Origin: Acinetobacter wanghuae
GTDB lineage: Bacteria; Pseudomonadota; Gammaproteobacteria; Pseudomonadales; Moraxellaceae
DNA length: 32,000 bases
Reading direction: 5' to 3'
NCBI RefSeq assembly: GCF_009557235.1
Contig: NZ_CP045650.1
Coordinates: 2,070,001 to 2,102,000 of the forward strand
Shown here: one piece after another, positions 1,795-29,030 of the stretch
Position numbering within the stretch: position 1 is the first letter of the stretch
Layout: every line of letters starts with the position of its first letter
Translations under genes and position numbers: made by a program
The notes under the pieces: generated by a model
Told to the model about the DNA's origin: nothing
The model's input: only the letters and a program-made list of their open reading frames with translations
The model's database searches: none

Positions 1795-1843
1795 AATTTC
1801 ACAATGTCGCTATTGTGGCAAACGAATGATCAAGATTTTAAAA

Positions 1844-1920
1844 TGGCGCAGCGGACGGGACTCGAACCCGCGACCCTCGGCGTGACAGGCCGATATTCTA
1901 ACCAACTGAACTACCGCTGC
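1844..1920 (-). tRNA. tRNA-Asp (anticodon GUC)
   Basis: Identical to the copy at 1531..1607. Confidence 0.95.
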
Positions 1921-1949
1921 ACTATAAAATCTCAAAAATGAAAGAAACT

Positions 1950-2025
1950 TGGTGGGCGCTGACGGGATCGAACCGCCGACATTCTGCTTGTAAGGCAGAC
2001 GCTCTACCAACTGAGCTAAGCGCCC
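1950..2025 (-). tRNA. tRNA-Val (anticodon UAC), promoter-proximal copy
   Basis: 76 nt, identical to the other Val copies. Confidence 0.95.
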
Positions 2026-6468: not shown

Positions 6469-9400
6469 TTAGCCCTGTTTTTCAGCAATTAAATCTTGCA
6501 CATTTGCCAATAATTCAGCTTCTTGGAATGGTTTACCCATATAGTGCGTTACGCCCAAGTTAAATGCACGTTCACGATGTTTCTCACCAGTTCTTGAAGT
6601 AATCATAATAATCGGCAAATCGCGATGAATTTCGTGATGGCGAACCAAATTGGTCACTTCAAAACCATCCATACGTGGCATCTCAATATCGAGCAACATC
6701 AAATCTGGTCTAATATTTTCAAGTTGCTCAATCGCATCGACACCATCTTTGGCAGTCACCACATCATAACCTTGACGCTCAAGTAGACGTGAAGTTACTT
6801 TACGTACCGTCACTGAGTCATCCACAATCATCACTAAACGGCGTGAATCACTTGAACGTTGCTCACGCTGATCAATATGGTGTTTGATTCGTTGCGTTGC
6901 TTGAATCTGACGCGCCACATTTTGTCCATCGAGAATCAGACAAACTTGACCATCACCCAAAATCGTTGCGCCTGCAACCACGCCGACATTGGCAAACTGT
7001 ACCCCAATTGGTTTCACCACAATTTGTGCACGCGAACCGACGAGTTGATCCACCAATAAAGCAGTGGTTTGTCCATGATTGCCTTTAATTAACAATACAG
7101 GCAAAGAATGCATAACGTTGTTTAGACGTGGAATCGGTTGATTGGAAACGAACTCGGACACGTAACGTAATTTATAATCTTGCCCATCAATTTTAAAGAA
7201 GTCTTCTTTGCTATTGAAATAGGTTTCTAAGGTCGATGGTGCGATACGTACAATACGGTCAATTTGTGCCAACGAAATTGCAAATTGTTGATCGCCCGCT
7301 TTGACCATTAAGGCATCGCTGACCGCAACCGTTGTCGGTACACGAATGGTAAAGGTTGTGCCTTTACCCAATTCGGATTGAATTGAAACATGCCCACCCA
7401 GTGATTTAATTTCACTTTGGACAACGTCTAGACCCACACCGCGTCCTGAAATTTGAGTCACCGCTTTTGCAGTACTGAAACCTGGGTGGAAAATAAATTG
7501 TAATAGCTCTTCTGAATCAATCGCTTGTTCAGGTTGAACTAAATTCAAACTGATGGCTTTTTCACGAATACGTTCTGCATCGATCCCTTTACCATCATCA
7601 CTAAAGGAGACAATAACATCGGTGCCTTGACGGCTAATATTGAGCACAATTGAACCAACTTCTGGCTTGTTCAAAGCGATACGTTCTGCTGTGTCCTCAA
7701 TACCATGGTCAATCGCATTTCGTAGCATGTGCTCAAATGGTGTGACTAAGCGTTCAAGAATGGTACGGTCTAATTCACCTTCAGTATTTTGAACGATTAA
7801 TTCTGCTGGACGGTTAAGTGTGGTCGATGTTTGACGCACAATACGTTGTAATCGTGGTAGCATCCGATCAAACGGCACCAAACGGGTACGCATTAAGCTT
7901 TCTTGAATTTCAGCCTGAATACGCGATTGTTGTAACAATAAACCTTCGGTATCACGAATTTTATTAGACAGCGTACTTTTAAAGTCCACCAAATCCGACG
8001 CAGATTCCGCCAATGATTTTGACAATTGATTCAAAGATGAATATTGATCCATTTCTAATGGGTCAAAATCAGCATAGCGTGAATTTTCATTGCCATGTTT
8101 CGCAATAATTTGTGATTCTAACTCACCATCCATACGACGTAACTGATCAGCAAGACGTTTGATCGCGAGTTCCATCTCGTTCAAGGTATTCCCGAGCTGA
8201 CCAAGATCCATCTCAATACGTGAACGGTTAATCGCATTTTCACCAGAAAGATCAATCATTTTCTCGACCAAATCTGCCGAGATTCGGATCATTTCATTGT
8301 TACTATCGGTATTATTCGATTCTGACCATTCACCGAGCATACTTGGTGGTTCTGAACCATCACCCTGCACAAATTCGAAACTCGTGCTCGCAGAAAGGCT
8401 TTCAGTTTTGGTTAAACGCTCTGGCAATTGCGCAGTCACATCGACATATTCAATCGCTTCTAATGCCGAACGAATATGCTCAAAATTGTCATACTCGCGT
8501 TTAAAGATCGCTGTCTTTAACCATTCAAGCGTTTTTAATAATAAGGCATCGTATGCATTTGAATTGAAATGATGTACTGCAAACTGTTCAAACGTGGTCT
8601 CTAGCTCATAAGCAATGGTGGCGATGGTTTCATTCGCCATCATACGTGCGCCACCTTTAATACTATGTACTGCACGTTGTAATTGAAGTAATAAACTTCG
8701 GTCACTACGTTGATCAAACCATTGATTAAGGAGCTTCTCAGTATTGGCTAAAATCTCTTCTGCTTCTTCTAAGAAGGTTTCTTCAACAATCGATTGAAGT
8801 TCCTCTTCTTCACTCAGTACCGCTTTATTTTCAAATGCAGGTGACACTTCTTTTGTCGTTACTTCAAATTCAGCATCCTGTTCTGTATGCTCAGCAACAG
8901 ATTCGTTAAGTACGTCATTAGCCTCATTGGTCTCAAGATCAACGGCTTCTGAAAGCGTGTGAACACCATCTATCGACTCTAGCGCTGTCACATTCTCTTC
9001 TGTTGAGGCATCTGGAGTTACTGAAGCACTTTCAGCTTCAACCACGACTTCTGACATCGTTTGTTCGAGAGCTGCCACATGAACCGTGGACTGACCATCT
9101 ACAATGCCTTGGATATTTTGCAAAATATCAATTGCTGCCGGAGCAGGATAATCAACTAAATCATCACGAATGGATTGAATACGATCGGAAATATTATCTT
9201 GAACTAAACGGATAATTTGAATGAGTGTAGATGTAACTGGAATTTGCTTACGAATAACACGTTCATAAATACTTTCTAGTTCATGCGCAATTGAACCGAT
9301 ATGCGATGCGGCAATCATATTCGCGCCACCTTTTAAGGTGTGCAAATAACGCATTAAATTATTTAAAGAAGTGGTATCAACGTGATTTTTTGACCATGTA

Positions 9401-11064: not shown

Positions 11065-11179
11065 AGCTCAGGCTTCTTACGTCTTGCAGCCAATGGCTTG
11101 CGCAAACTTAATGATGACCAGCACGCGAGAACCCTCTCTCAATGTCAGGACATTTTCTCAACGCTTTATCTGTATTTGC

Positions 11180-11207
11180 ATGTGCCTTAACCTGAATTAA
11201 GGCACAT
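11180..11207 (-). other. Perfect 11-bp stem-loop in the pilJ-chpA intergenic region
   Basis: ATGTGCCTTAA-CCTGAA-TTAAGGCACAT. On the transcribed (minus) strand the hairpin is not followed by a U-tract, so it is not a canonical terminator. Confidence 0.5.
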
Positions 11208-11228
11208 TTTTAGCGCGGTTTAATCGCT

Positions 11229-13301
11229 TTATTCTGGTAATTTAAAGTCAGATACAGATTCACGTAATGCATCAGCCATGTTTGCCAACTCAGATACAGA
11301 TCGTGCTGTATCGAAGGTTGCTGTCGTGGTTTGCGAGGTAATTTCTTGTACGACATTCATGGTCGTTGCAATATGACCCGCCGATGCAGACTGCAATTTT
11401 GCCGCATCCGAAATGTTGGCAATCAATTTCGCAAGGTTATTTGATACTGTTTGAATTTCATCCAGTGCGACACCCGCATCCTTAGATAAGTTTGCACCAC
11501 GTACCACTTCAGATGTGGTTTGTTCCATCGACATTACCGCTTCATTGGTATCTGTCTGAATGGTTTTAACCAAGCTTTCAATCTGTTTCGTTGCAGATGC
11601 TGAACGCTCTGCTAGACGCTGTACTTCGTCGGCAACTACCGCGAAACCACGACCTGCTTCACCTGCCATCGATGCCTGAATGGCTGCATTCAATGCCAAG
11701 ATGTTGGTTTGGTCGGCAATATCGTTAATTAAGGCAACGATGTTACCAATCTCTTGAGATGATTCACCCAAACGCTTAATACGTTTTGAGGTTTCTTGAA
11801 TCTGTTCACGAATCGTGTCCATCCCCTCAATAGAGCGGTTTACGACATCAGCACCGTTCGCAGCAATTTGTACTGAACGCTCTGCAACCACCGCTGACTC
11901 TTCAGCATTGGCAGATACTTGGTCAATCGACATTGCCATTTCATTGATTGCGGCAGAGGCACCTGCAATTTCCTGTGCCTGATGTTCAGAGGCTTCGGCA
12001 AGCTGATTGGTAATGCCCTGAGTATTGGCAGTATATTGTGCAACTTCTTGCGATGTTTCGGTAATACGCGAAACTAGGTCACGCAGTTGATCAATCGCAA
12101 AGTTAATCGAATCGGCAATCGCACCAGTAAAGTCTTCCGATACCGTTGCATACGAACGTAAGTCACCATCTGCAAGATCGGCAATCTCATCGAGTAAACG
12201 TAAAATTGCGTTTTGGTTACGGTCATATTCTTCTTGTAAACGACCTACACGTTGTTTATCCGATACGCCACGTAAAGACAGTAATTTGAATACGCAAATC
12301 AAAAAGCCTGTCAGGAATAAGATCAACAGCAATGCTGGAATCGCAGTTTTAAGACCGGTATTGCTTGATAGTTTGTTTAAGTTTTCAAGTAAGGCATCCG
12401 ATTGAGCAAAAATCGAAGCCGATGCTTGGCGTACTTTTACAATTTGTGTGGAGTTTTGCAAAATCGTTGCTGATGCAGATTTTAATACACCATCATATTC
12501 AGATTTAATGCCTTCTAATGATTCGCGTAAGGTTGGATCTGAAATACGATCCACCCCAAGTTCACTTGAACCTGTGAGTTGCGCATTTAAATATGAACCA
12601 AATGTTTCAGTATCTGAGCTAAAGTCATCTGCAGATTCATGAGAGCCATCGGTACCTGTCAGCACCAAGCTAATTGAACGTAAAATACGTTCCGCAATGA
12701 ATACTTGGTTTTTCGCAATCACCACCTGACTCGATGGCATATCTTGACGTGCCATTTGGTCAACCATCAAGTTATATTCCGCCTGAATCCCTGGAATCGC
12801 TTCACCAATGGCAATATTGGTGTCATATAACTGGTTAATAATTTTTTGTTGTGAGGAAATCAAATCAATACTTTTTGATACTTCATTCCATTGTTGATCC
12901 ACAGCTTGAAGTGCATCATTATTGGCATGAATACTTTTTACTGTATTTAAGTTATCCGTAAATGACTTTTGTGATTCAGTCAATTTCTTCATGGCTTCAG
13001 GTGTGCCAGACGCAGTTGCCTCTGTTGCCTGACGTGAAATGGTTTGTGACAACAGACGCAAATCACCCAAGCTACGGGTCAATTCATTGGCACGAGGAAT
13101 AATATAGAAAAGAGACAATAAGATAATGGTCGCCGCAATTAAACAGCCCACTGCGCCATAAATCAGTGGTTTAGATTTTTCACTATCCCCAAATACACGC
13201 GACAATTGATCTGTTTGCGCCTGAATTTTTGCTAAAAAAGCATTGCTGCCTTTACGCGCCCCGCTTTCACCTGCATTTTTCTTTTTAAGCTTAAAGCCCA
13301 T
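11229..13301 (-). CDS. pilJ: Methyl-accepting chemotaxis protein PilJ
   Basis: 690 aa with two TM segments flanking a large periplasmic region. It has the highly conserved MCP signalling hairpin [51 protein letters not shown] and sits in a pilGHI-J-chpA context. Confidence 0.9.
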
Positions 13302-13345
13302 CCAGCCTCTCCCCCGATTACGCCTTTTTTACTTTCGCGCAACAA

Positions 13346-13882
13346 TTAATTTATAAATTTTATAGATGCATTCATGAATTTTGGATTTTGCAACAATTGA
13401 CTGAATAAAAACACATGCCATTGTTGGCTATGTTGATGGAAGAAACCACGACAATAGTCTTGTAGGTTCTCATCCAATTCAGCATTTTTTGAAAAGAAAC
13501 TTTTCTTATTAAAGTGTTGAATCCCCAAAACTTGATCAACCACTAAACCGACATACTGATCATTATGGTTAATACATAATACTTTTTGAGTCGGTGTAAA
13601 TTGGCTCTTGTGACCTGAAACATAATGTGCCAAATCCGACACCGATAAGAGCCTTCCCCGAATATTCGCCAGTCCCACCACCCAAGCTTGAGTATTCGGT
13701 ACTGGCGTATATTTTGGAGGATAGATCACTTCGGATACTTCCCCCAGCGGAGCAACAAAATATTGCCCCATCATCTCAAAAGCAATGCCTGACCATCGGT
13801 TCACTTCATTTTCGTTAGAAACGTAGTTTTTATTACCACGCTTTGCTATACGAAGTAGCTCGATAAATCCATTTGCTGCCAT
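13346..13882 (-). CDS. pilI: CheW-like coupling protein PilI
   Basis: 178 aa. The CheW pattern is YFVAPLGEVSEVI...VPNTQAWVVGLANIRGRLLSVSDL...YVGLVVDQVLGI. It lies between pilH and pilJ. Confidence 0.85.
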   Translation of the reverse strand: MAANGFIELLRIAKRGNKNYVSNENEVNRWSGIAFEMMGQYFVAPLGEVSEVIYPPKYTPVPNTQAWVVGLANIRGRLLSVSDLAHYVSGHKSQFTPTQKVLCINHNDQYVGLVVDQVLGIQHFNKKSFFSKNAELDENLQDYCRGFFHQHSQQWHVFLFSQLLQNPKFMNASIKFIN

Positions 13883-13887
13883 AGCGC

Positions 13888-14256
13888 CTATCCTGCATTG
13901 AGGTGCTGCTTAATTACATCAATTAATTGTTGTTCATCGACTGGCTTCGTTAAGTAATCTGCAGCGCCCTGACGTTTACCCCAAACACGGTCAGTCGCTT
14001 GATCTTTCGTACTTACAATCACAATCGGAATATGTTTAGTGGTTGCGCCTCGTGCAATTTGACGTGTTGCTTGAAAGCCATTCACACCCGGCATCACCAC
14101 ATCCATTAAGACAAGATCAGGTAGTTCCGACTGCGCCATGGTCACACCATCTGCCCCATTCGATGCTTCGACTACCTCAAATCCATGTTTAGTTAAAATC
14201 TCTCTAAAACGGAACGTTTCTGTAGGTGAATCATCTACAATAAGGATACGTGACAT
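13888..14256 (-). CDS. pilH: CheY-like single-domain response regulator PilH
   Basis: 122 aa with receiver motifs ILIVDDS, LVLMDVVMPGVNG and TKP. It is the second gene of the operon. Confidence 0.85.
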   Translation of the reverse strand: MSRILIVDDSPTETFRFREILTKHGFEVVEASNGADGVTMAQSELPDLVLMDVVMPGVNGFQATRQIARGATTKHIPIVIVSTKDQATDRVWGKRQGAADYLTKPVDEQQLIDVIKQHLNAG

Positions 14257-14280
14257 GCTTTTCCCCCAAAAAAAATCAAA

Positions 14281-14664
14281 TTAAGCACTAATATGGTTAC
14301 GGATTGCGTTAAGCAATTCATCTTTACTAAATGGTTTAGTCAAATATTCATCCGAACCCACAACACGACCTTTCGCTTGATCGAATAAACCGTCTTTACT
14401 CGATAGCATAATCACAGGGATATTTTGGTAATTTTGAGAATTTTTGATGAGTGCACACGTTTGATAACCGTCTAAACGTGGCATCATAATATCGACAAAA
14501 ATAATATCTGGACTCGATTCTGCAATTTTTGATAGTGCTTCAAAACCATCCACTGCAGTGACGACTTCACAACCTTCACGCTGAAGAAGAGTTTCCGCTG
14601 TACGACGAATGGTTTTTGAGTCATCAATCACCATGACTTTTAGATTTTGGAATTTATCGTCCAT
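14281..14664 (-). CDS. pilG: CheY-like single-domain response regulator PilG
   Basis: 127 aa with receiver motifs VMVIDDS, IIFVDIMMPRLDG and TKPF. It is the first gene of the operon and has a GAAGGG Shine-Dalgarno. Confidence 0.85.
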   Translation of the reverse strand: MDDKFQNLKVMVIDDSKTIRRTAETLLQREGCEVVTAVDGFEALSKIAESSPDIIFVDIMMPRLDGYQTCALIKNSQNYQNIPVIMLSSKDGLFDQAKGRVVGSDEYLTKPFSKDELLNAIRNHISA

Positions 14665-14945
14665 TTCTTGACCCTTCTCATTTTAAGGACTATTAACAAT
14701 AGCGCTTATAGCATTATTTTATTAAGAATGATGATTATTTTTAACATACCTCACAAGGCATTATCAACGCACATTTTCCACGCAAGTCGACATAAAAGGT
14801 TTTTTTTAACAACAACTTCACATTTTATAATATTCATTGATTTATTTTTGACTTACACTAGTTTTTAATTGAGCGGTTTCAGTCTAATATATCATTATTA
14901 TTACTTTAAAATAAGTAATTTAGTCAACTTTAAATTGGGGTGCCA

Positions 14946-15587
14946 ATGATGAGTCAGTTTGCAGAAAAACTTGCTTGCATTGATAAAAATAAGTATCTAA
15001 GAGGTGTGCTTCTGTTCATCACGTTGACTTTACAGACAACGCTGAGTTACGCAGATGCTCAAAAAAAAGCCAAGTGGTATCGCTATTATGACAGCAAAGG
15101 TGTGGCAAATATCAGCACCAATGTGACACCTAACCATATCCGTTTTGGCTATGAAGCACTCGATCAAAACATGCAAGTGATTCAACGCGCACGCCCCTAT
15201 AATGTCGAAGCTGATATTCGACAAGCACCTCAACGTGCTATTCAGGCACAGCGCAAAGCCGAAGATAGCAAACTAAAACGTGCTTATAATAATAGTCATA
15301 CTGCGACGCAGAAAAAACAGGAAGCACTTACCCAAATTAAAAAACAATTGGTTTTTCAGCAAGACCAACTCAAACAATTACAAGCCGATCGCGTCATGTT
15401 TGTACGTCAAGAACGTGAGTTTGCGCGAAAAGGAAAGACTGCCCCTGAGCACTTAAAGCTTACGCTGCAAACCAACCAAAATAACATTACAAAGCAAAAA
15501 GAAAATATTCAATCTTTACAAAGTCGCTATCGAAATTTAGAAGCCGAATACGACAGAATAATCAGTCGCTTAAAAGCACTCGAATAA
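14946..15587 (+). CDS. DUF4124-domain secreted protein with a C-terminal coiled coil
   Basis: The track starts at GTG 14940; ATG 14946 is more plausible. It has a signal-like segment LLFITLTLQTTLSYA, then KWYRYYDSKGVANIS (the DUF4124 pattern), then a K/Q/E-rich heptad-like tail. Confidence 0.6.
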   Translation: MMSQFAEKLACIDKNKYLRGVLLFITLTLQTTLSYADAQKKAKWYRYYDSKGVANISTNVTPNHIRFGYEALDQNMQVIQRARPYNVEADIRQAPQRAIQAQRKAEDSKLKRAYNNSHTATQKKQEALTQIKKQLVFQQDQLKQLQADRVMFVRQEREFARKGKTAPEHLKLTLQTNQNNITKQKENIQSLQSRYRNLEAEYDRIISRLKALE

Positions 15588-15632
15588 TCCAGTCAATTCG
15601 GGCTTTTATAGACGGCGCTATAAAGGACTCTT

Positions 15633-16766
15633 ATGCAACTTAAATCGCACACCATGTTTCACCTGCTTCAATCCTCTCGCTTGGCTTTGATTGTCGGAAT
15701 TTTAAGCTTCAATTTTGCCCTCACGGGCTGTGGTCAGAAAGAACCCACTCAAAAACAAGCAGAGCCACAAAATATTGAATTAATTGCCCAAGATTTAGTT
15801 GCAGTTCAATCGGGTGACTCTGTGCAAATGACCGCCTTCACTGGGACGATACGTGCAGTCAATCAAAGCAGCATTCAAGCCCAAGTAAGCGCAACTGCAA
15901 CTAACGTCAATGCACAAGTCGGTGACAAAGTTCAAAAAGGGCAAATCTTACTAAGACTGAATAATCAGGACAATGCAGCACGTTTAGCCCAAGCCCAAGC
16001 CAATAAAGCCTCAGCACAAGCGCAAGCCAACCAAGCGAAATTGATGATGGAACGTAAACTACGTTTACTCAATCAAGGTTTTATTTCCAAAGTTGAATAT
16101 GAACAAAGCCGTGTCGATTACCAAGCACAACTTGAAAATGCCCGCGCCCAACAAGCCAATGTCGATATCGCACTCAAAGCGGATCAAGATGGTCTCATTA
16201 AAAGTCCAATCAGTGGTGTGATCACTGCGCGCCAAGTTGAACCGGGTCAAACCGTTGCAATCGGGCAAACCTTATTTGAAATTGTAGATACCAATCAACT
16301 TGAGATTCAAGCCAAAGTACCAAGCGATATGCAAAGCGCGCTCAGTGTTGGCAATCAAGTGGAATATCAAATTCAGGGCAATCCAAATCGTTTAACTGCG
16401 GTCATTAGCCGAATCTCCCCAATTGCTGATCAAGCCAGTCGTCAAATTGAATTCTTTGCTACGCCAAAAGAAACCTTGAGTTCACTGAGCATTGGTTCAT
16501 TTATTGATGGTAACATCATGAGTTCACAGAAAATTTCGGGACAAATTGTGCCACTCGATCTGGTCAAAAATATTGAGTCACAACCCTATGTGTGGATTGT
16601 GCGTCAAAATAAAATCATGAAAGTTCAAGTTGAACTATTAGAGCAACGCTACAAAGACAATATTGCGGTGGTTAGAGGATTAGAAACAGGCGACCACGTC
16701 AGTCGTCTCGAATTTACCGATGCTGATATCAAAAAAACCGTCACACTTGACTCAAAACAAAAATAA
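15633..16766 (+). CDS. RND efflux periplasmic adaptor (membrane-fusion) lipoprotein
   Basis: 377 aa with lipobox LTGCGQ. An alpha-hairpin region rich in AQAQ coiled coil is followed by the beta-barrel motif PISGVITARQVEPGQTV. It sits directly upstream of the RND permease gene. Confidence 0.85.
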   Translation: MQLKSHTMFHLLQSSRLALIVGILSFNFALTGCGQKEPTQKQAEPQNIELIAQDLVAVQSGDSVQMTAFTGTIRAVNQSSIQAQVSATATNVNAQVGDKVQKGQILLRLNNQDNAARLAQAQANKASAQAQANQAKLMMERKLRLLNQGFISKVEYEQSRVDYQAQLENARAQQANVDIALKADQDGLIKSPISGVITARQVEPGQTVAIGQTLFEIVDTNQLEIQAKVPSDMQSALSVGNQVEYQIQGNPNRLTAVISRISPIADQASRQIEFFATPKETLSSLSIGSFIDGNIMSSQKISGQIVPLDLVKNIESQPYVWIVRQNKIMKVQVELLEQRYKDNIAVVRGLETGDHVSRLEFTDADIKKTVTLDSKQK

Positions 16767-16784
16767 TCAAACAGGATCTTTGAT

Positions 16785-19700
16785 ATGTGGTTGACTCGAA
16801 TCAGTGTGAAGTACCCAGTCTTTACCATCATGATGATGTTTTGTTTGATGGTACTCGGTTTAGCATCATGGCAACGTATGGGCGTGGAAGAATTCCCCGA
16901 TGTGGATTTTCCTTTCGTCGTGATTTATACCAATTATCCGGGTGCATCGCCTGAAACAGTTGAATCTGAAATTACCAAAAAGCTTGAAGATCAGATCAAT
17001 ACCATTTCCGGTTTAAAACAAGTCATTTCACAATCGAGTGAAGGCTTGTCGATGATTACCACCGAATTTAATTTGGATGTCTCATCGACCACCGCAGCAC
17101 AAGACATTCGCGATAAAATTTCATCAGTAACCGCAGAATTTCGCGATGAAATTCAAGATCCCATTGTCGAGCGTTACGATCCGACCTCAAATGCAATTAT
17201 GTCGATTGTATTTGAATCCAATAATATGGATCTTAAATCACTCAGCTCTTATTTGGATCAACGTGTGGTTCCGCAACTGAGAACGGTTGCAGGCGTCGGT
17301 ACAGTGAATTTATTGGGTGATGCACAACGGCAAATCCGCATCGAAGTCGATCCACAAAAATTACAAGCCTACGGCATTGGCATTGACAGTGTCATTAACA
17401 CCCTTAAATCTGAAAATATTGAAGTTCCGGGCGGTACGCTAAAATCAAACAATTCGGAACTGGTGATTGAGATTAATTCTAAAGTCCAACATCCGCTTGG
17501 TTTTGGTGATTTAATTGTTGCCAATAAAAGTGGCGCACCTATTTTCCTCAAACAAGTAGCAAATGTAAAAGACACTCAAGCCGAACTTGAGTCTGCTGCC
17601 TTTTTAGATGGCAAAGCAGCTGTTGCGATTGATATTTTAAGAAGCTCAGATGCCAATGTTATTGAAGTAGTCGATCGCACCTATAAAACCTTAGACACCG
17701 TCAAAAGCCAACTTCCGCAAGGCACATCACTAAAAGTGGTCGTGGATTCATCTAAAAGTATTCGTGGCAGTATTGCCGATGTGGCGCGCACCATCGTTGA
17801 AGGTGCTGTGCTTGCCGTACTGATTGTACTGTTATTCTTAGGCTCATTCCGTTCTACAGCAATTACTGGATTAACGCTGCCGATTGCCCTACTTGGCACG
17901 CTCACTTTTATTTGGGCATTTGGTTTTACCATCAACATGATGACCTTACTTGCCTTATCACTCAGTATTGGTCTGCTGATTGATGATGCAATTGTGGTGC
18001 GAGAAAATATTGTGCGTCATGCCGATATGGGCAAAGACCATACGACCGCAGCCCTAGATGGGACGAAAGAAATTGGACTTGCTGTTTTAGCAACAACCTT
18101 GACGATTGTTGCTGTGTTCTTACCTGTGGCATTTATGGGCGGGATTATTGGGCGTTTCTTCTATCAATTTGGGGTGACGGTCAGTGCTGCCGTACTGATT
18201 TCCATGTTTGTCAGCTTTACCCTTGACCCGATGCTCTCTGCACATTGGGCAGAAAAGAAACCGGATCCCAATAAAAAGCCGAGTGCTTTAAAACGCTTCT
18301 TTAACTTTATCTCGAGCAAACTGGATAACTTAAGCCACGTCTACGAAAAGCTGCTTAAACTTGCACTTCGTTTCCGTTTCATCACGATTGTGATTGCGGT
18401 GGCATCACTCTTTGGTGCGCTGGGTTTATCCAAAATGATTGGAACAGAGTTTGTGCCTGTACCCGATAAAGGTGAAATTCGAATTAAGTTTGAAACCCCT
18501 GTCGATGCAACCTTGGAATATTCGCAAGCTAAGCTGCAACAAGTTGAACAGGTGATTCGTCAACATCCAGATACCCGTGGCACTTATGGTGTCATTAATG
18601 GATTGACTGATCGTGGTAAAAATCATGTGAGTATTCGTGTGACCGTGACCCCGCGTACTGAGCGTGAAAAAAGCTTAAGTGATATTAACAACGAATTCCG
18701 TGAACGTCTTAAAAGTATTGCCGGCATCAGCGTGACTTCAGTTGCCTCTGCGGATGAAACCGTATCGGGCGGTCAAAAACCGATTATGATTTCAATTAAA
18801 GGTCCTGATCTAAACGAGCTGCAAAAAATCTCAGATCGCTTTATGCTGGAAATGGCAAAAATTGATGGCGTGGTTGATTTAGAAACCTCACTCAAAGAAC
18901 CAAAACCAACACTAGATATGCAAATTAATCGGGTGTTGGCGAGTGATTTAGGTCTATCCGTCAATCAAATTGCCAATGCGGTACGCCCACTCATTGCGGG
19001 CGATGATGTCACCACTTGGCAAGATCCAAAAGGTGAAACCTACGATGTCAATCTGCGCTTAGCAGAAAGTAAACGTACTTTACCGAGTGATTTGCAAAAT
19101 ATGTATGTGACATCATCTAAAACAGATGCAAATGGTCAACCTATTCTCACACCACTTGCTAGCGTAGCAAAATTTGAAGAAAAACTGGGTGCTTCGCAAA
19201 TTAACCGTCGTGACCTTGCCCGTGAAGTACTCATTAAAGCCAATACCTCTGGACGTCCTTCAGGTGACATCGGTACGGATATTAGTGCGATGCAAGAAAC
19301 CTTTGAGCTACCTACAGGTTATAGCTTTGATACACAAGGCTCGAATGCAGACATGGCAGAATCGGCAGGCTATGCTTTAACGGCAATTACCCTGTCGATT
19401 GTATTTATTTATATTGTGCTCGGTTCACAGTTCAATAGCTTTATCCACCCTGCATCGATTATGGCATCACTGCCACTGTCCTTAATTGGTGTGTTCTTGG
19501 CATTGTTCTTGTTTAACTCCACCATGAACTTATTCTCGATTATCGGGATTATTATGTTAATGGGGCTTGTGACCAAGAATGCGATTCTCCTCATCGACTT
19601 TATTAAAAAAGCGATGGATCGTGGCGAAGATCGTTATGATGCCATTATTGCAGCGGGTAAAACGCGACTCCGTCCGATTTTAATGACCACAAGTGCGATG

Positions 19701-21764: not shown

Positions 21765-23090
21765 TTAGCAGAATTTAAGACCGCCGAAGCAATTGGATTT
21801 AAAATTTTGACCTTGCAGTGTTAAATTAACTAGAGGAAAATCTAAAGATGTTGTAAGCGGTATATTTCCAACACCAAGCGTGCTTCCTCCAATACAGCCT
21901 GATAGCAGATTACCGCAAGCTCGAGGATTATCAGTTAAATTTTTACTGATACCGGCAATGGTCTGCTGTAATACAGCATTTGAAATGTCTACATTTGTTG
22001 TTGGGCTTAAACTTCCTAAATCAACCTCATCCTCCATTGCAAGCCACCAGCCTTTATTGGCCCCAGCTGAAGCACCTGGCCATAAAAGGTTAACCTGCTG
22101 CAAAGACAAGGAAGCTGCATTATTTAAATATAAGGCATGGATTAACCCCAAATCTTGGGAAACCGAAATATCAGTTTTTAACCCTGTAATATTACCAGTT
22201 ACAACTTTATCTAAATTCAAAAGACCTAAGACTTGGGCTGTTAAATCTCCATAGAAGTCTAATTGGCCAACAGTGCCTGACCCCTTAAGATCGACTTTGG
22301 TCATTCTTGAGCCCGATACTTGAGTAGAATTGATAGTAAATGGCGCATAGGCTGATTTTAAAATAAGATCGTATCCATTTGACTCATAACTAATTTCAAG
22401 ACCTGAAGAACAAGAGTCACCTATTAAACATCCTGAGACTTTACCTTTAATAGGGTAATTGAATGTATTTTTGTCATAAATCATATGTCGTTCATTAGTA
22501 ATTGCTGTTCCAGAAGCTTCTTTGGTTTTCATATAACCACTAAAAGATTTAATTCCATTCGGCGTTGAACTATTCTCCGTACCAAGTGTCATTAGACCAG
22601 CAATTTTTTCAGCGCTTACTCTAAAACCCAAAACTTCTCTAGTTGAAGCTAAAGTAGGATTTTTAATCGCAAATTGTATAAAAGGGTTTGTAATAACCGC
22701 CGATGTAGCAGCACGCTCATCAGATGTATAATCGCTTTTTATTGTTCCATCTGCATTTTTCACTAAGCCACTTAATGCAATATTATCAATATTGATATCA
22801 CACGCCTGAGATGATTTCGCTGCTGCATTTGCATAGCCGCAACCCAACTGTAGACTCTTAATATTAGCGTTCAGCTCCATTTCTGCATCTAGACCAAGCT
22901 TATAAAAACCTATATTGGATTGATCGTAACTAATTCCCATCGAGTCCGTACTATTCGTCCCTGATTGATACTGCAAATTTAATAAAGCCTGCCCATCGAC
23001 TTTGGACAATGATTGATCATCTAAAGCAATCATCCCATACGAATGAGAAACTGCAAACATGCTTAAAGCAGCTAATACTAAAATTTTCAT
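21765..23090 (-). CDS. Secreted protein of unknown function, 4th gene of the operon (possibly FilE-like)
   Basis: 441 aa with signal peptide MKILVLAALSMFAVSHSYG, then ALDDQSLSKVDGQ. It is rich in G/S/T/N/L. Eight Cys form four short pairs (C84/C97, C221/C227, C392/C399, C434/C441), and the last residue is Cys. A Shine-Dalgarno AGGGA lies 7 nt upstream of the ATG. Confidence 0.6.
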   Translation of the reverse strand: MKILVLAALSMFAVSHSYGMIALDDQSLSKVDGQALLNLQYQSGTNSTDSMGISYDQSNIGFYKLGLDAEMELNANIKSLQLGCGYANAAAKSSQACDINIDNIALSGLVKNADGTIKSDYTSDERAATSAVITNPFIQFAIKNPTLASTREVLGFRVSAEKIAGLMTLGTENSSTPNGIKSFSGYMKTKEASGTAITNERHMIYDKNTFNYPIKGKVSGCLIGDSCSSGLEISYESNGYDLILKSAYAPFTINSTQVSGSRMTKVDLKGSGTVGQLDFYGDLTAQVLGLLNLDKVVTGNITGLKTDISVSQDLGLIHALYLNNAASLSLQQVNLLWPGASAGANKGWWLAMEDEVDLGSLSPTTNVDISNAVLQQTIAGISKNLTDNPRACGNLLSGCIGGSTLGVGNIPLTTSLDFPLVNLTLQGQNFKSNCFGGLKFC

Positions 23091-23117
23091 ATTAATTTCC
23101 CTGATTTTTAATTATTT

Positions 23118-25466
23118 TTAACGTGGCTTAATGCCAAGCGTGCTGCGCATTGATCCTCCAGTAAACGCAATATCTCCAATTTTCTGCATTTTCCCTACGC
23201 TAGGTGACAGTGCAACCTCTGCAGTAAAAGCTTTTCCAATAGTACTTTCATTTCCTAAACGATTAAAACTAACTTGACTATCTAAAACAGCTGTATCTTT
23301 TTTCATACGTACACGCGCTTCAGCTCCAACATCACCCTGCATCTTATTTAAGTTAATACTCGATACATTCACTGAATCTTCATTACTGATGCTGATATAG
23401 CTTCCAAGATTTTCTGCATCATTCTTTTCATCAGCTAATAGAGGTGTAAACTGAAAATTTGCCTTTAGCTTCAAATAATTGGTATCAGGTGTTGCTGAAG
23501 CACTTTCAATACCTGGAATAATAAAGAGTTTGCCATCGCCGTCTAATTTAAATGCAATACTAGCAAGTACATCATCTTTACGACCGAAATTATCGATTGG
23601 TACGATTTTCTTACCGCATTCACCGCCACAATTATATAGAGACCCTGGAAGTTGCCCTATTGCAATCTCAGCTTTTGCAGCAAATAGTAAGTTATCTGCT
23701 TTAATATATATTCCATTATCCTCAAAACCGATGACACCATTGGCTTTAATATAAGAGTCAATATTTCTCAGACCTGCATAATAGTTCACTTCTTCACCTT
23801 GAAGGACTTTACCACTTGTATCCTTCAAAGGCACACCATCACTGTCTTTTAATGTACGCTTTTCACCATCTAAAACCAATAAGGATGTAGTGTAGGAATT
23901 TCCAGTTTCACTATCATAATAATATCCATCCGTAGACATAGCTAAGTCAAAACCTAATCCACTCTTTTCATTTCCTAATTTATTGGTATATTTTTTTTCA
24001 AATAACCCTAAATTGGCATTCAAATTATATATAGGTATACCGATACCCCATGTACCTTCTGGGGCATTATTCTCAGGTAAAGAATTATCAGAAATAAATC
24101 TTGCTTTACGAGCAATTGCTTGGAAATCCATACCACGCACAGCAATAAGTGTCATAGTTTGAGGATCTATAGTGGGTGAGGGATTATAAATTATTTTATT
24201 ATCAGGTAATTGTAATATATTTTTAATCTGATCATTTACAGCGAATCCTAAATTATCCGTGTTTACTGTATTTATATAAATATCACCAAAATTTATATAA
24301 GCATTAGCTGTACTTAAAGGTGCACCTTCAGCTTCAGATGTTCGTACATTCAAGCGAGTGAGATTAGAGAATTCGATAGCATAACTACCTGTACCCGTAT
24401 GGCCTAACTCAAAAGTAGTGGGCGTTTTTCCACTTACTGTTGTTTTATCTTTATCTGCGCGCGTAAAATCTGCAGACATCCCCAAATGCAAACCACCGCC
24501 TTGAGTAAAATCGTAGCCTTCATTGTCAGCAATTGTACTTTTTACACCACCATTAATAACATGGAATGATGAAGCACCTTCTTGCTTAGCATTGAGCATA
24601 ATCTTACCATTGGTCAAAGCACCAGATGCACCAAGACGGATTAAATTTCCTTGTGTTCCATCTTCACCATAACGCAGATCAATATTTACTCCTGGCTTTG
24701 TCTTTCCTGCGAACTCATTATCTTTTACACGATTTAATTCAACAAAATTCCCGGCATCACGTGTTTCCAAAATAATCCCATTATCAGGATCAATGAACAT
24801 GTATCCATCGGCACTCAGATTAAAATTAAAATCTTTCAGTGTTAGATTCTGCCCATTCTGACCATATGAAATACTAGCATTTTGTAGTCTAAAGTCTAAA
24901 TGGGCGCTATCATTCTGATTAAATAGTCCATTTTTTGTTTTTAAATAAACTTCAAGAGGAGATGTTGTTGAAATACTCAAGCTACCCAAATTCTGTGGTT
25001 TACTTGAATTTTTATAAATAATTTTTCCTGTCTTATCATCTCTTCTAATTTCACCACTGATATCTCTTTCAATAATACATTCAGATGGACATAACATAAT
25101 CTGAGATGCAGCTAAAACAAAAGGTGAAATACTTGCTGAAAACTCTATACCAACACCATCTCTACTTTCACTGATTTCAGTTCTTCCCACATCAAAATCT
25201 ATTTTAGATAGAATTGATGTGTTACCAGCATTCGCACTGATTTGAACATCATGCAGACCCAATTTAATTGGAGTTTTTCCATTTTCCGAATAATCTACCC
25301 AATTTAATTGATCTATATTCGCTCTCGACATTTCATGAGTAATACTAATTCCATCCTGACCAGTGACCGAACTAAGTGTTTGATCAGACATTACTTGCAG
25401 TGCATAACTTTGATTGGCTGCACAGATACAAGCTACGAGAAAATTTAATTTTATTATTGCTCTCAC
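23118..25466 (-). CDS. Large secreted or outer-membrane-associated protein of unknown function, 3rd gene of the operon
   Basis: 782 aa with a GTG start preceded by AAGGA/GGAG. The signal peptide ends ...ANQSYA and is followed by VMSDQTLSSVTGQDG. It is N/G/S/T-rich and beta-like, with mature Cys only in two C-x3-C pairs (CPSEC, CGGEC). Confidence 0.6.
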   Translation of the reverse strand: MRAIIKLNFLVACICAANQSYALQVMSDQTLSSVTGQDGISITHEMSRANIDQLNWVDYSENGKTPIKLGLHDVQISANAGNTSILSKIDFDVGRTEISESRDGVGIEFSASISPFVLAASQIMLCPSECIIERDISGEIRRDDKTGKIIYKNSSKPQNLGSLSISTTSPLEVYLKTKNGLFNQNDSAHLDFRLQNASISYGQNGQNLTLKDFNFNLSADGYMFIDPDNGIILETRDAGNFVELNRVKDNEFAGKTKPGVNIDLRYGEDGTQGNLIRLGASGALTNGKIMLNAKQEGASSFHVINGGVKSTIADNEGYDFTQGGGLHLGMSADFTRADKDKTTVSGKTPTTFELGHTGTGSYAIEFSNLTRLNVRTSEAEGAPLSTANAYINFGDIYINTVNTDNLGFAVNDQIKNILQLPDNKIIYNPSPTIDPQTMTLIAVRGMDFQAIARKARFISDNSLPENNAPEGTWGIGIPIYNLNANLGLFEKKYTNKLGNEKSGLGFDLAMSTDGYYYDSETGNSYTTSLLVLDGEKRTLKDSDGVPLKDTSGKVLQGEEVNYYAGLRNIDSYIKANGVIGFEDNGIYIKADNLLFAAKAEIAIGQLPGSLYNCGGECGKKIVPIDNFGRKDDVLASIAFKLDGDGKLFIIPGIESASATPDTNYLKLKANFQFTPLLADEKNDAENLGSYISISNEDSVNVSSINLNKMQGDVGAEARVRMKKDTAVLDSQVSFNRLGNESTIGKAFTAEVALSPSVGKMQKIGDIAFTGGSMRSTLGIKPR

Positions 25467-25494
25467 TCCAATTTCCTTTTGAAAGTATCAATAA

Positions 25495-26235
25495 TTAGCA
25501 ACGCGCATTCGCATTGCCTGTGCAATTAAAACCAAAAATCTTTAAATCACCGGACATATGCAAATTCCCATGCATATTAACGCCCATAAATCCTTTTTCA
25601 CGCCCTTTATCAAAAGTTCCTATAGAAAGGGTTTGTCCATCATCCGCATAAGTTCCATCTGTCTTCTTATAGAACGTCTTAAAAGTATCTTCATACTTAG
25701 ACAGCTTCATATAGCCTTTATCTTTTTCTGTTTTCCCTCCATTTTCATCAGTTTCTATACTTAAAGTTTCAAATCCTAAATTTCTTATTTTTATAGGGTT
25801 TGCATCACTAAATCTAACATTTAAAGCCGTCTTAGGAGTTAAGGCTGGATCAGCATAAACTATTGTAGAGCCTTCAATAGCAAAACTATCAATTTGCACT
25901 GTTCCTTGAATCTTTTTAAAAACTAGCCATTTCTGATTTTCATTTTCATCTTTATGATTATTTGGCGAAAATGCTAATCGGCACTGAATATCATTTTTAC
26001 AGCTATATCCATAATAAACTTCCTTATCGCCTTGATTATTTACCCCCCAAATGTCTGTTAAAGACATTTCGTTCGCGTAGCGGTGATTTAAAGATAGTGT
26101 CCAGCTTAGATCAGCGCCGCCTTGACCATAAGTATTTTGCATTTGAGATGAATCTAAATTTGTTAATGTAGCATGCGCTATGCCAGTTAAAAAAAATAAT
26201 CCAGTAAAATAAGATTTATTGATCATTATCTTCAT
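25495..26235 (-). CDS. Small secreted protein of unknown function, 2nd gene of the operon
   Basis: 246 aa from ATG 26235, or 243 aa from ATG 26226, which has better spacing to the AAGGA that overlaps the upstream stop (TAAGGATGAAGATAATG). The signal peptide ends GIAHA and is followed by NLDSSQMQNTYGQGG. It has two Cys pairs (C-x5-C and a C-terminal C-x7-C). Confidence 0.6.
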   Translation of the reverse strand: MKIMINKSYFTGLFFLTGIAHATLTNLDSSQMQNTYGQGGADLSWTLSLNHRYANEMSLTDIWGVNNQGDKEVYYGYSCKNDIQCRLAFSPNNHKDENENQKWLVFKKIQGTVQIDSFAIEGSTIVYADPALTPKTALNVRFSDANPIKIRNLGFETLSIETDENGGKTEKDKGYMKLSKYEDTFKTFYKKTDGTYADDGQTLSIGTFDKGREKGFMGVNMHGNLHMSGDLKIFGFNCTGNANARC

Positions 26236-26237
26236 CC

Positions 26238-28223
26238 TTATAATCCTGTAGTTTTAATCTTTAAATGCTGAATAAGAACCCCATCTATCGCAACAGAACC
26301 AAGATTAACTGGACTACCTGATAAGTTTTTAAAAACGATACCTGTTGCATTGCTTCCTGTTCCTGCATTAATTCGCTTAGTAGATGCATCATATGCTGCT
26401 GTACCAATTGTAATACTGCTATGAGTTGCCGCACTGCTCTGATATGTTGCACCGCCAATAGAAATATTTTTACCGCACTCATATACACTGCATGTTGAAC
26501 CTGAAATCTCATATATGCCTGTAGTACCAGTTTCAGGATTTTTGACTGAAAGAGAAGCCTTTCCTGTACTAGAGTCAACTGTGATATTTTTATTAGCACT
26601 ATCAGTGTCTGAGTAATAATTATAAATTTTAGTATATATTTCAGGAATATTTGGGATTCTTGTTATTTCTAAAATAATATTATTGGTATCAGACCCAATA
26701 ATAAATGGCTGATACATATTACCCAGTACTAAGTTAATATTAGGACTGTACAAATATAATCCTTCATTCTTATTAAACAGTGGTGCTGTTCCACCATTTA
26801 ATGCTGGCGTAGCAGCTGCTGGCGTAACTGCAGGCTCCTGTTCAGCGGTACTGATACGAATTGCTTTATTATTATTAAGCGCAGTAAAGCTAACATTGCT
26901 TGGAGTTAAGTCTGTATTTAGCCTTAAAATACTTGCCATACCTAAAGTCGAATTATACTGACTGTTCTCGGCATTCTTTGTTTCCATTGTTTGGAACAAT
27001 CTCAATTGCGTACCGTCAATTGACAATCCATTTGCTACAAATTGAAGCCTTAATCTCGAGTTTGCAGACAAATCACTGCTATCTATCGGAGCTCCTGTTG
27101 CTTCATCTACTAAATAATCAGAATTCCAGCTCCTTGAAAATAAATCAGCCCAGAATCCCATTTTAAACACATTAGGAGATAATGTTGAAAGCAATGGAGC
27201 CTCAAGAGCTAAATACCCTACATCTCCTGGTGTATTCTCAAATTGGCGTACGCCTTTTTCTGTACCCGCCCTAAAAAGCCAAGGATTTTCTGCGGTCCCC
27301 CAATTAAATCCACTATTACTGAATCTTTGATTTAAATCACTATTCGACGCTGAAAGCGCAAGACCGTAAATAAATACATCAGCTTTATTCTTAGTGTTTC
27401 CAAAAGCAGCGACAGCCTTTGTACGCAAACTTGACCGGCTCTCAGCTGTATCCAAAACATTTTTAACATCACTATCAACTTGCTGTGCAGCATAATTCTG
27501 CATAAGCAAGCTTGTTCTTGCATTGGCTAAGAAATCAGCTTCATTATTAATTTTTGCTGTGACTCTATTTTCTATTTCGTTGATCCATGCTGTTGTCTTC
27601 AAATCTGCATTTGCATCTGCTATAGCGGCAGCTTCCTTTCTTTCTTTACTCCATGTTCCATAACTCCATACATTGCTGTATTTATTATCCAGATAATATT
27701 GTATACGCTGGGAATATACCGTATCTGGAGTGGCTCTAGATGTCTCAAAATTTTTAAAATCCGTATAGCGTAAATTCCTTACCTCAGCTTTAGCCAAAAC
27801 CAGCTGCTGATTATAGATATTTGTTTTTTGAGCAGCATTATTCAAAGAAGAGTTATAAACATTCGCTTTAGAAGTCGCATATTGCGCTTGATACGCTTTT
27901 TGATATTCCTGTTCATATAATTTTGAAAATTCTTTTTGATAACTACCACCCGTTGGAATAATACGAATAAAGCCAGTGTCATATGCTTCAGGTTTCTTAT
28001 AAGGATCTATAGCGTTGTAAGTTGAATTTTTAGAAATATCATTCGGTCCTTGAAATACCATCTTGAAGTTATCTAAAACAAGTGCAACACCTTCACCGGT
28101 TGTATCAGAAAGTGAATGATCAGAGAGTTCCTGCATAGCATGTGCAGTAGGGAGCATCATTAAGCCAATGGTTAAAGCTAAATAACGTCTACGAAAACGA
28201 TGAAAACGTACCAATTCTGTCAT
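26238..28223 (-). CDS. Secreted protein of unknown function, 1st gene of the operon (possibly FilF-like)
   Basis: 661 aa with a strong Shine-Dalgarno GAAGGAAG. The basic n-region RFHRFRRRY is followed by LALTIGLMMLPTAHA, then ELSDHSLSDTTGEG. A Y/Q/A/K-rich helical segment (aa about 95-260) precedes a G/S/T/N-rich region. There is a single Cys pair (C-x4-C). Confidence 0.6.
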   Translation of the reverse strand: MTELVRFHRFRRRYLALTIGLMMLPTAHAMQELSDHSLSDTTGEGVALVLDNFKMVFQGPNDISKNSTYNAIDPYKKPEAYDTGFIRIIPTGGSYQKEFSKLYEQEYQKAYQAQYATSKANVYNSSLNNAAQKTNIYNQQLVLAKAEVRNLRYTDFKNFETSRATPDTVYSQRIQYYLDNKYSNVWSYGTWSKERKEAAAIADANADLKTTAWINEIENRVTAKINNEADFLANARTSLLMQNYAAQQVDSDVKNVLDTAESRSSLRTKAVAAFGNTKNKADVFIYGLALSASNSDLNQRFSNSGFNWGTAENPWLFRAGTEKGVRQFENTPGDVGYLALEAPLLSTLSPNVFKMGFWADLFSRSWNSDYLVDEATGAPIDSSDLSANSRLRLQFVANGLSIDGTQLRLFQTMETKNAENSQYNSTLGMASILRLNTDLTPSNVSFTALNNNKAIRISTAEQEPAVTPAAATPALNGGTAPLFNKNEGLYLYSPNINLVLGNMYQPFIIGSDTNNIILEITRIPNIPEIYTKIYNYYSDTDSANKNITVDSSTGKASLSVKNPETGTTGIYEISGSTCSVYECGKNISIGGATYQSSAATHSSITIGTAAYDASTKRINAGTGSNATGIVFKNLSGSPVNLGSVAIDGVLIQHLKIKTTGL

Positions 28224-28410
28224 TTCTAACTTCCTTCTTTTATGATGCTCCGCATCTCTATCCTGCTAGCTTCCCAGCCTTCGCCATTCAATTTATACGA
28301 CGCATTCCGCATCTATTTTTATAGATATACAGCATCTATTATGCTTATTTTTAATCCAGATACCAAAGTCAACCGACTAAAAAACACAAGTTTCCGATGA
28401 ATGAAATCTC

Positions 28411-28441
28411 AAAAAAAGAAACGGGGCAAAATGCCCCGTTT
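28411..28441 (-). terminator. Rho-independent terminator of dcd, insulating it from the downstream operon
   Basis: The minus strand reads AAACGGGGCATTTTGCCCCGTTTCTTTTTTT. Confidence 0.85.
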
Positions 28442-28460
28442 ATTCAATATCTTAACAATT

Positions 28461-29030
28461 TTATGCTTTTGGCAAAGTGACGCCTGTTTGACCTTGGTAT
28501 TTACCACCACGGTCTTTATACGAGGTTTCACATACTTCATCTGATTCGAAGAACAGCATTTGTGCCACGCCTTCACCCGCGTAGATACGCGCAGGCAAGT
28601 TGGTTGTATTTGAGAACTCCAATGTCACATGACCTTCCCATTCAGGTTCAAGCGGTGTGACGTTCACAATAATACCGCAACGTGCATAAGTCGATTTACC
28701 CAAGCAAACCGTTAATACATTACGTGGAATGCGGAAGTATTCAACCGTACGTGCTAAAGCAAATGAGTTTGGTGGAATAATACACACATCAGATTCGATA
28801 TCGATAAAGCTTTTATCATCAAAGTTTTTCGGGTCAACAATCACCGAATGAACATTGGTAAACACTTTAAATTCGCGTGCGCAACGTACATCATAGCCAT
28901 AGCTTGATACGCCATAAGAAATGAGTTTTTCACCATTTTCATCGAGGCGAACTTGGTTTTCTGCATACGGTTCAATCATGCCGTGTTTTTCGCTCATTTC
29001 GCGAATCCAACGATCAGACTTAATAGCCAT
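28461..29030 (-). CDS. dcd: dCTP deaminase
   Basis: 189 aa. The sequence [21 protein letters not shown]...[33 protein letters not shown] fits the dUTPase-superfamily Dcd signature. Confidence 0.9.

Follow-up and report, generated by a model that had tools for sequence, protein, structure and literature searches.

The stretch of DNA analysed here (the window) comprises 32,000 nucleotides of Acinetobacter wanghuae (contig NZ_CP045650.1, positions 2,070,001 to 2,102,000) and carries on its minus strand four adjacent genes, termed genes 1 to 4, coding for proteins of 661, 246, 782 and 441 amino acids (Table 1). Each of these proteins begins with a predicted Sec signal peptide that is followed by the same short acidic segment, hereafter called the tag. 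The genes are separated by gaps of 2, 28 and 27 nt, and the unit is flanked by a terminator-like hairpin behind dcd on one side and by the convergent gene proS on the other. These short gaps, the two flanking elements and a promoter-like site ahead of gene 1 make it probable that all four genes form a single operon. The 782-residue protein is identical (100%) to A. wanghuae GFH30_09925, and the only database name other than "hypothetical" that these proteins bear is "DUF6160 family protein". Signal peptides and their AxA cuts were read from the sequence and not from a signal-peptide predictor; that of the 661-residue protein displays an arginine-rich n-region, a hydrophobic core and an AxA site.

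Table 1. Genes, signal peptides, tags and flanking elements of the four-gene unit, in window coordinates (aa, amino acids; ORF, open reading frame).
Feature	Position	Strand	Remarks
Terminator-like hairpin (strong) after dcd, between dcd and the four-gene unit	28419-28441	minus	10-bp stem, 6 GC pairs, T-run
Promoter-like site upstream of gene 1	28338-28366	minus	consensus match only
Gene 1, 661 aa	26238-28223	minus	661-like putative cargo family; ORF list
Predicted Sec signal peptide of the 661-aa protein, residues 1-29	28137-28223	minus	ends in AHA; read from sequence
Tag of the 661-aa protein, residues 30-44	28092-28136	minus	MQELSDHSLSDTTGE
Gene 2, 246 aa	25495-26235	minus	246-like putative cargo family; all-beta, C-terminal C-x7-C; ORF list
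Predicted signal peptide of the 246-aa protein, residues 1-22	26170-26235	minus	one extra Thr precedes the tag
Tag of the 246-aa protein, residues 24-38	26122-26166	minus	LTNLDSSQMQNTYGQ
Gene 3, 782 aa	23118-25466	minus	782-like putative cargo family; GTG start; ORF list
Predicted signal peptide of the 782-aa protein, residues 1-22	25401-25466	minus	
Tag of the 782-aa protein, residues 23-37	25356-25400	minus	LQVMSDQTLSSVTGQ
Gene 4, 441 aa	21765-23090	minus	441-like putative cargo family; ORF list
Predicted signal peptide of the 441-aa protein, residues 1-19	23034-23090	minus	
Tag of the 441-aa protein, residues 20-34	22989-23033	minus	MIALDDQSLSKVDGQ

Position and consensus of the tag

The original prediction, made from the DNA of the window, had located a shared motif directly behind the signal-peptidase site of all four proteins. 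Its ORFs and motif coordinates are exact, as translation of the ranges returns the quoted peptides, and the shared motif stands. Only its starting point, set at 2-4 residues after the cut, has to be moved: the conserved block begins two residues earlier, at the first residue after the predicted AxA cut, or at the second in the 246-residue protein, whose whole family has one extra residue ahead of the tag. Alignment of 318 non-identical instances gave, directly behind the AxA cut, the consensus [LM](98%)-x-x-[LM](96%)-[SDNT]-D-x-[EQ](74%)-[LM](99%)-S-x-[VTI]-T-G(99%)-Q(96%), and the column profile upstream of it displays small residues at cleavage positions -3 and -1. The tag corresponds to the first 15 residues of the predicted mature protein and is acidic, with a mean net charge of -2.5.

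Among the six-frame ORFs of at least 70 residues in the window (10,846 residues), the regular expression derived from the original prediction matches the four ORFs only, and it gave 0.0 matches per shuffled set in 200 shuffles. A 25-column hidden Markov model (HMM) of the motif, trained on a set that included the four window sequences, scores the four proteins at 29.1, 29.1, 27.5 and 17.1 bits and the next window ORF at -1.0. When a profile of the four N-termini was compared with 1.84 billion cluster representatives, 138 matches were obtained, 129 of them N-terminal and behind a signal peptide. The mature N-terminal placement, which the prediction had proposed to check by such a scan, was found throughout: every bacterial match carries the tag at the predicted mature N-terminus. 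The other 9 matches were rejected as spurious, being eukaryote-like giants that sum weak matches to FN3 repeats and score below 3 bits with the motif HMM. The matches P0222, P0223, P0228, P0229 and P0252, which carry FN3/tenascin-type repeats, reach E-values down to 2e-16 against the four-sequence profile. Such giant-protein scores are sums of many 4-5 bit matches to the stretch following the tag ('..VT....LSWT.s..fds') and have no biological link to it; short profiles call for caution on this account.

A tag of at least 12 bits is present in 479 of the 502 fetched proteins, with a median start at residue 25, and in the 161 fetched loci none of at least 12 bits lies past residue 110 of any ORF. 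The proteins that carry it are 150-900 residues long and unrelated in sequence. The genome scan for related loci retrieved almost exclusively Acinetobacter, because it keeps the best 80 loci.

Tagged protein families and fil operons

The original prediction was correct in comparing these N-termini with a DUF family of Pseudomonadota proteins, the family being Pfam DUF6160 (PF19657). The DUF6160 model matches residues 2-92 of the 782-residue protein at 44.7 bits (E 1.6e-11), above the gathering threshold of 27 bits. Matches to the 246-residue protein (19 bits, E 0.0017) and to the 441-residue protein (16.6 bits, E 0.0093) stay below the threshold and cover model positions 1 to ~48 only, and the model gave no match in the 661-residue protein. 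Judged by these scores, gene 3 alone among the four is a DUF6160 member, whereas the others have just the leader part in common with it. The NCBIfam model NF050077 (pilus_FilA) aligns with residues 9-59 only of the 782-residue protein (40.6 bits, E 1.9e-10) and with the N-terminus only of the 661-residue protein (13.2 bits, E 0.044). No window protein is a FilA equivalog, which needs a full-length match of at least 220 bits; the true FilA in locus L138 scores 315 bits. Among the 129 tagged representatives, FilA was the only NCBIfam family matched at E <= 0.001 (34 members). In the DUF6160 model the tag takes up columns 24 to ~40, and in the FilA model positions 21 to ~35. Neither DUF6160 nor the NCBIfam "putative pilus system" FilA-F of Acinetobacter gives the motif a function; the 246-like, 441-like and 661-like families are unnamed, and all window proteins but the 782-residue one stay under the DUF6160 threshold. 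Our literature search on DUF6160, FilA-F and thick pili returned no functional study of the motif, and DUF6160 was mentioned only within a list.

The families differ in size and architecture. In other loci the place of the 661-residue protein is taken by homologues with 36-41% identity to it; the last two tag positions of this family are invariably G-E(-G), the window protein being a G-E-G variant. Gene 1 products vary in length, from 480 residues in A. johnsonii (L001 7839-9281) through 661 here to as many as 903 in L168, and the differences sit in a Q/N/A-rich centre, both ends being conserved between species. The 246-like family comprises 96 homologous clusters, and all those named after an organism are from Acinetobacter. 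The 441-like family, with more than 1,100 clusters, all unnamed, has a conserved GFYKLG..ELNANIKKLQLGCGG motif and a C-terminal NCYGxLKFC, and its genes frequently occur in 2-4 tandem copies in other genomes. Tandem diverged paralogues are seen in L077 3649-11389, L044 38-5217, L056 9956-14432 and L130 7150-10939; they number up to four for 441-like genes and, in L130, four for FilA-like genes, an arrangement that resembles the pattern of variable surface subunits. Both 441-like and 246-like proteins end in a conserved Cys-x6/7-Cys whose last cysteine is the final residue (21765-21794 and 25495-25524 in the window); the loop so delimited, NCYGxLKFC in the former and NCxGxxxSRC in the latter, may be closed by a disulphide.

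The module order 661-like, 246-like, 782-like, 441-like is found also in A. johnsonii and many other Acinetobacter species and is kept in more distant lineages (L165, L166, L168), often adjoining dcd. Other genomes have one to four 441-like copies in front and a FilA-like gene added at the end. The dCTP deaminase gene dcd adjoins the tagged module in the window (21765-29030) as well as in L072 (9091-17922), L165 (5882-13763) and L166 (4825-12157), and this linkage persists in distant lineages whose other neighbours differ (SecB, glutaredoxin, RsgA). In A. ursingii a pair of reverse-strand ORFs resembling an insertion sequence (14465-15609) interrupts the 782-like gene (L068 13747-17407), leaving it as two separate ORFs (13747-14433 and 15692-17407).

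The fil operon of A. baumannii has been described as coding for FilA, a peptidase C39, a pilus assembly protein, an outer membrane transporter, FilE and FilF (PMC4751259, Table S3). Operons of this kind were recovered when metagenomes were scanned with FilA-like proteins as queries. In L138 six genes exceed the NCBIfam cut-offs for FilA to FilF; its FilB matches Pfam Peptidase_C39 and C39_FapD (E 1.4e-32), its FilC matches the FapF transporter model (E 1e-19) and its FilD is a FadL/Toluene_X barrel. FilB homologues have an N-terminal hydrophobic segment, and their C39 catalytic residues Q71, C77, H162 and D178 are invariant. The 782-residue window protein was also considered as an outer-membrane channel related to FilC or FilD, a candidate rejected on hhalign probabilities of 0.2% and 2%, respectively.

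Within fil operons FilA alone carries the tag, and in L130 it is carried by the four tandem FilA paralogues. Overall, the tag is present in 82 of 86 FilA-like, 100 of 101 246-like, 91 of 103 782-like, 143 of 146 441-like and 55 of 67 661-like proteins. It is absent from the machinery FilB-FilF (0/69 in all), namely from FilB (0/18), FilC (0/16), FilD (0/12), FilE (0/12) and FilF (0/11). The vicinity of a C39 peptidase gene extends to several lineages: a DUF6160 gene adjoins a Peptidase_C39 gene in a lineage of 51% GC (L162), and in a Pseudomonadales metagenome-assembled genome (L164) four consecutive tagged proteins are followed by a C39 protein, a 387-residue protein and a Toluene_X protein. 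In L162, a distant fil-like locus, the DUF6160-C39 pair is separated from the tagged DUF6160 genes by four tandem genes (11221-19203), whose ~660-residue products match Glyco_transf_41 (O-GlcNAc-transferase-like), TPR and SEC-C motif models; this hints that cargo in this lineage might be glycosylated. On each of two metagenome contigs a fil operon is accompanied by a dcd-linked cluster of cargo genes (L138 with L088, and L152 with L087), with ~36 kb between the fetched stretches.

Likeness to double-glycine leaders and readings of the tag

In length, spacing and acidic character the tag resembles the double-glycine leaders of class II bacteriocins, competence peptides and microcins, which are cut by the C39 domains of those ATP-binding cassette (ABC) transporters that contain a peptidase (PCATs). 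The consensus of these leaders is LSxxELxxIxGG (PMC6181422). In leader numbering the tag, likewise of ~15 residues, has L/M at -15 (98%), L/M at -12 (96%), S/D/N/T at -11, E/Q at -8 (74%), L/M at -7 (99%), V/T/I at -4 and G at -2 (99%). The tag thus agrees with the leader at every conserved position (a hydrophobic residue at -15, -12, -7 and -4; serine at -11, glutamate at -8 and glycine at -2) other than -1. The hydrophobic residue at -15 is one that matters in double-glycine leaders, as is known from the ComA peptidase literature. Set in this register, the window peptides read M..LSD.SLS.TTGE, L..LDS.QMQ.TYGQ, L..MSD.TLS.VTGQ and M..LDD.SLS.VDGQ. GQ is the prevailing end in four families, GE that of the 661-like family; canonical ends occur in divergent relatives (LKPMNDEELSSIYGG in L164; LSNDELSAVQGA and TTGADGI in L166), to which GG and GA ends are confined. 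A composed consensus tag peptide matched TIGR01847 bacteriocin_sig (12.8 bits against a cut-off of 15.7) and the leader portion of Pfam Lactococcin, in both cases below threshold. A C39 peptidase gene lies close to tagged genes of the FilA type (L138, L162, L164), as one does to double-glycine leaders, whereas none was found in the window or beside any dcd-linked cluster examined. The two differ in several respects: unlike a leader at the extreme N-terminus, all instances of the tag follow a hydrophobic, cleavable Sec signal sequence with an AxA-type site; nearly all its Moraxellaceae members have Q or E at -1; its cargo would be large proteins of 150-900 residues and not peptides; and its candidate peptidase is a free-standing FapD-like protein without an ABC transporter.

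A precedent for a C39 peptidase of the free-standing type exists in Fap, the Pseudomonas functional amyloid system (FapA-F). There FapD, a periplasmic C39 peptidase exported by Sec, is indispensable for Fap secretion, and secretion through FapF requires its catalytic cysteine (PMC5557850, PMC6173800), and fapD-fapF pairs are found also outside fap operons (PMC5557850, PMC6173800, PMC3792158). The Fil system is alike in that it has homologues of FapD (FilB) and of the FapF barrel (FilC), the substrates are Sec-exported, the peptidase is presumed to be periplasmic and genes for fibre-type cargo lie in the same operon. It is unlike Fap in that FilB (112.8 vs 330 bits) and FilC (70.7 vs 700) score far below the Fap equivalog cut-offs, in its additional FadL-type FilD, FilE and lipoprotein FilF, and in its cargo families, which are unrelated to FapB/C/E; the window, furthermore, is without genes of the FapD or FapF families.

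The suggestion of the original prediction that the tag is a sorting or recognition signal gains support from its mature N-terminal position in every bacterial match, from its occurrence in five otherwise unrelated families and from the fil operons, where it adjoins a C39 leader peptidase and outer-membrane channels that are themselves without tag. The tag probably acts as the address label for a fibre secretion system of which little is known. On the Fap precedent, with its periplasmic C39 peptidase and secretion through FapF, we favour, at slightly better than even chances, the view that the tag is a second leader read in the periplasm, serving as the recognition and probably the cleavage site for a periplasmic C39 peptidase and the Fil route, with the four window proteins as cargo. 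In such a pathway, the Sec signal peptide would carry the protein across the inner membrane and be cut at the AxA site, which would expose [LM]xx[LM][SDN]Dx[EQ][LM]Sx[VTI]TG[QE], a segment with the spacing of a double-glycine bacteriocin leader, as the new N-terminus. FilB, the C39 cysteine peptidase and FapD homologue, would recognise this segment and probably cut at or just after the G-Q or G-E, acting together with the outer-membrane proteins FilC (FapF-like) and FilD (FadL-like), and the cargo would then be passed to the cell surface. The window proteins would be cargo encoded beside dcd in a separate operon devoid of machinery, and A. wanghuae would be expected to possess filB to filF. 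The evidence now favours cleavage downstream of the motif, with a two-step leader in which a double-glycine-like propeptide comes after a Sec signal, an outcome that the original prediction had counted against its own proposal; if cleaved, the tag would still be a recognition signal, though a discarded one. In the AlphaFold2 (AF2) model of the 246-residue protein, the tag is the part of lowest confidence and is unpacked, which is what a flexible leader would be expected to show. The wider proposition, that a two-step export code made of a Sec signal and then a periplasm-read, double-glycine-like leader marks the cargo of a FapD/FapF-related Fil pathway, is one that we advance tentatively and with more doubt than conviction.

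Several points weigh against a periplasm-read leader. At -1, where canonical C39 peptidases accept G, A or S, the tag has Q, replaced by E in the 661-like family (three Q and one E in the window proteins), and the four natural window peptides gave no match to bacteriocin-leader models. Fap proteins are without canonical C39 sites according to the Fap authors (PMC5557850), and the substrate of FapD, the FilB homologue, is still undetermined (PMC5557850, PMC6173800). The hydrophobic segment of FilB is without a clear positive n-region in many homologues, and the periplasmic location of FilB's catalytic domain is presumed. No C39 peptidase or FapF/FadL-type gene was found in the 32-kb window, nor within 10 kb of any dcd-linked cluster examined. 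Since its gene order is kept across distant lineages, the four-gene module could be self-sufficient, although its 782-residue protein shows no relationship with FilC or FilD. Finally, with peaks at 90 and 130 degrees, the hydrophobic moment profile of the tag departs from that of a clean 100-degree helix.

An uncleaved targeting or docking sequence, which would steer periplasmic intermediates to an outer-membrane channel or chaperone with the C39 peptidase acting elsewhere, is the alternative that survives best, though we consider it unlikely. Its model is curli, where the N-terminal 22 residues (N22) of mature CsgA direct CsgA to the CsgG channel. Like the tag, N22 is a short mature N-terminal segment, exposed after Sec cleavage, that routes a fibre subunit to a dedicated outer-membrane channel; unlike what is proposed for the tag, it is retained and has no associated peptidase, CsgG is unrelated, and there is no sequence similarity between the two. 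The same positional data and the same split between cargo and machinery fit such a sequence equally, and Q or E where C39 enzymes need G, A or S would suit binding without cutting, for which non-catalytic, substrate-binding C39-like domains of type 1 secretion are known examples (PMC5557850). Against it, the invariant catalytic set of FilB suggests an active protease, which should have some substrate; the tag is the only element common to all co-encoded cargo; and canonical GG and GA ends stand at the homologous position in relatives.

The tag could also be part of an N-terminal structural module (signal peptide, short helix and first beta-hairpin, that is DUF6160) that was inherited by common descent, shuffled among proteins and kept for folding or stability without any signalling role. 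Similarity between 782-like and FilA-like proteins does extend ~25 residues beyond the G-Q (hhalign of the 782-residue protein against FilA-like proteins gave 98% probability, over residues 6-63 only), an 816-residue homologue from A. pittii matches FilA across ~170 residues, and the 441- and 782-residue proteins have a KLGL element in common. In the AF2 model of the 246-residue protein (predicted local distance difference test score, pLDDT, 82.5), moreover, residues 35-49, following the tag, form a long strand of the core. The tag itself, however, is unpacked in this model, with a short helix at 29-33 and a pLDDT of 53-62, and similarity stops directly after it in the 246-like and 661-like families. 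A structural module, which we regard as quite unlikely, would require neither that 479 proteins carry it exactly at the signal-peptidase site nor that it follow the division between cargo and machinery. Foldseek with the 246-residue model found no PDB match better than E 0.7, PDB sequence searches (family profiles for 246, 441 and 782, the single sequence for 661) returned nothing meaningful, and the AF2 model of the 782-residue protein (20-sequence alignment, pLDDT 40.6) was unusable and therefore left out of the fold search.

A role of the tag as an N-terminal extension for the assembly of fibre subunits, either by donor strand as in chaperone-usher pili or by helix packing as in type IV pili, appears improbable. 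In its favour, FilA bears the name of a putative pilus protein, the tandem diverged copies of 441-like and FilA-like genes recall those of pilin genes, and the 246-residue model has a flexible N-terminal segment ahead of the fold. The original prediction had envisaged a strand for subunit complementation, which finds no support: the hydrophobic positions of the tag are spaced i, i+3, i+8, i+11 and do not alternate, and its beta-type hydrophobic moment is the lowest measured, which rules out a beta pattern for the tag without proving a helix. Pfam searches of the four proteins revealed no PapD-like chaperone and no usher domain, and donor-strand complementation is not supported by these sequence features. 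The likeness to chaperone-usher systems lies in a conserved N-terminal segment on otherwise diverse co-operonic subunits and, superficially, in gene sizes of ~240, 780 and 440 residues that recall a chaperone, an usher and an adhesin; here, the 'chaperone-sized' and 'usher-sized' proteins are tagged too. A strongly acidic tag on unrelated proteins of 150-900 residues, without type IV pilin features, argues further against fibre assembly. The amphipathic beta-strand that had been proposed to follow the motif holds for part of the set, namely for the 246-residue protein (a strand in the AF2 model and a high beta moment) and the 441-residue protein (high), and fails for the 661-residue protein (low) and the 782-residue protein (not above helical). 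As to a chance resemblance among four signal-peptide-proximal regions, for which nothing but the shortness of the motif speaks, it is excluded by the 0.0 matches expected in shuffles, by HMM scores of 17-29 against -1 bits and by conservation of the tag in hundreds of orthologues and in distant lineages.

Genomic surroundings and significance

Elsewhere in the window, a local GC peak is explained by an array of eight tRNA genes (1154-2025, minus strand, ~870 nt) with two alternating score classes (73.6 and ~70.5 bits). Positions 6469-14664 of the minus strand, a few kb from the tagged operon, hold genes for proteins of 127, 122, 178, 690 and 1531 residues, syntenic with A. johnsonii genes in whose copies Response_reg, Response_reg, CheW and MCPsignal domains are annotated; by this synteny the run resembles a chemosensory cluster of the Pil-Chp type, as serves type IV pili.

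That the motif lies within Pfam and NCBIfam models, and that FilB is named a C39 peptidase, is already known. In the literature searched we found no statement that reads the motif as a leader of the double-glycine type following a Sec signal, none that makes it the mark of five cargo families (of which four are unnamed), and none that relates the Fil system to FapD/FapF. C39 peptidases are regarded as enzymes that cut leaders in the cytoplasm and are fused to ABC exporters. A double-glycine-like tag behind a Sec signal offers a concrete, testable candidate substrate for the free periplasmic (FapD) branch of these enzymes and, if the proposal is true, would be the first recognisable substrate motif for a periplasmic C39 peptidase family. 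It would then allow genome-wide prediction of cargo and would take in at least five unnamed protein families, many of them encoded far from the machinery. Large "hypothetical" envelope families of Acinetobacter, including the relatives of FilA and the neighbours of the vaccine candidate FilF, would become predicted cargo of one pathway, and the tag is simple enough to serve as a search key for more cargo and as a handle for export reporters. In a genus that contains a priority pathogen, such a pathway would have a bearing on the biology of biofilms and adhesion.

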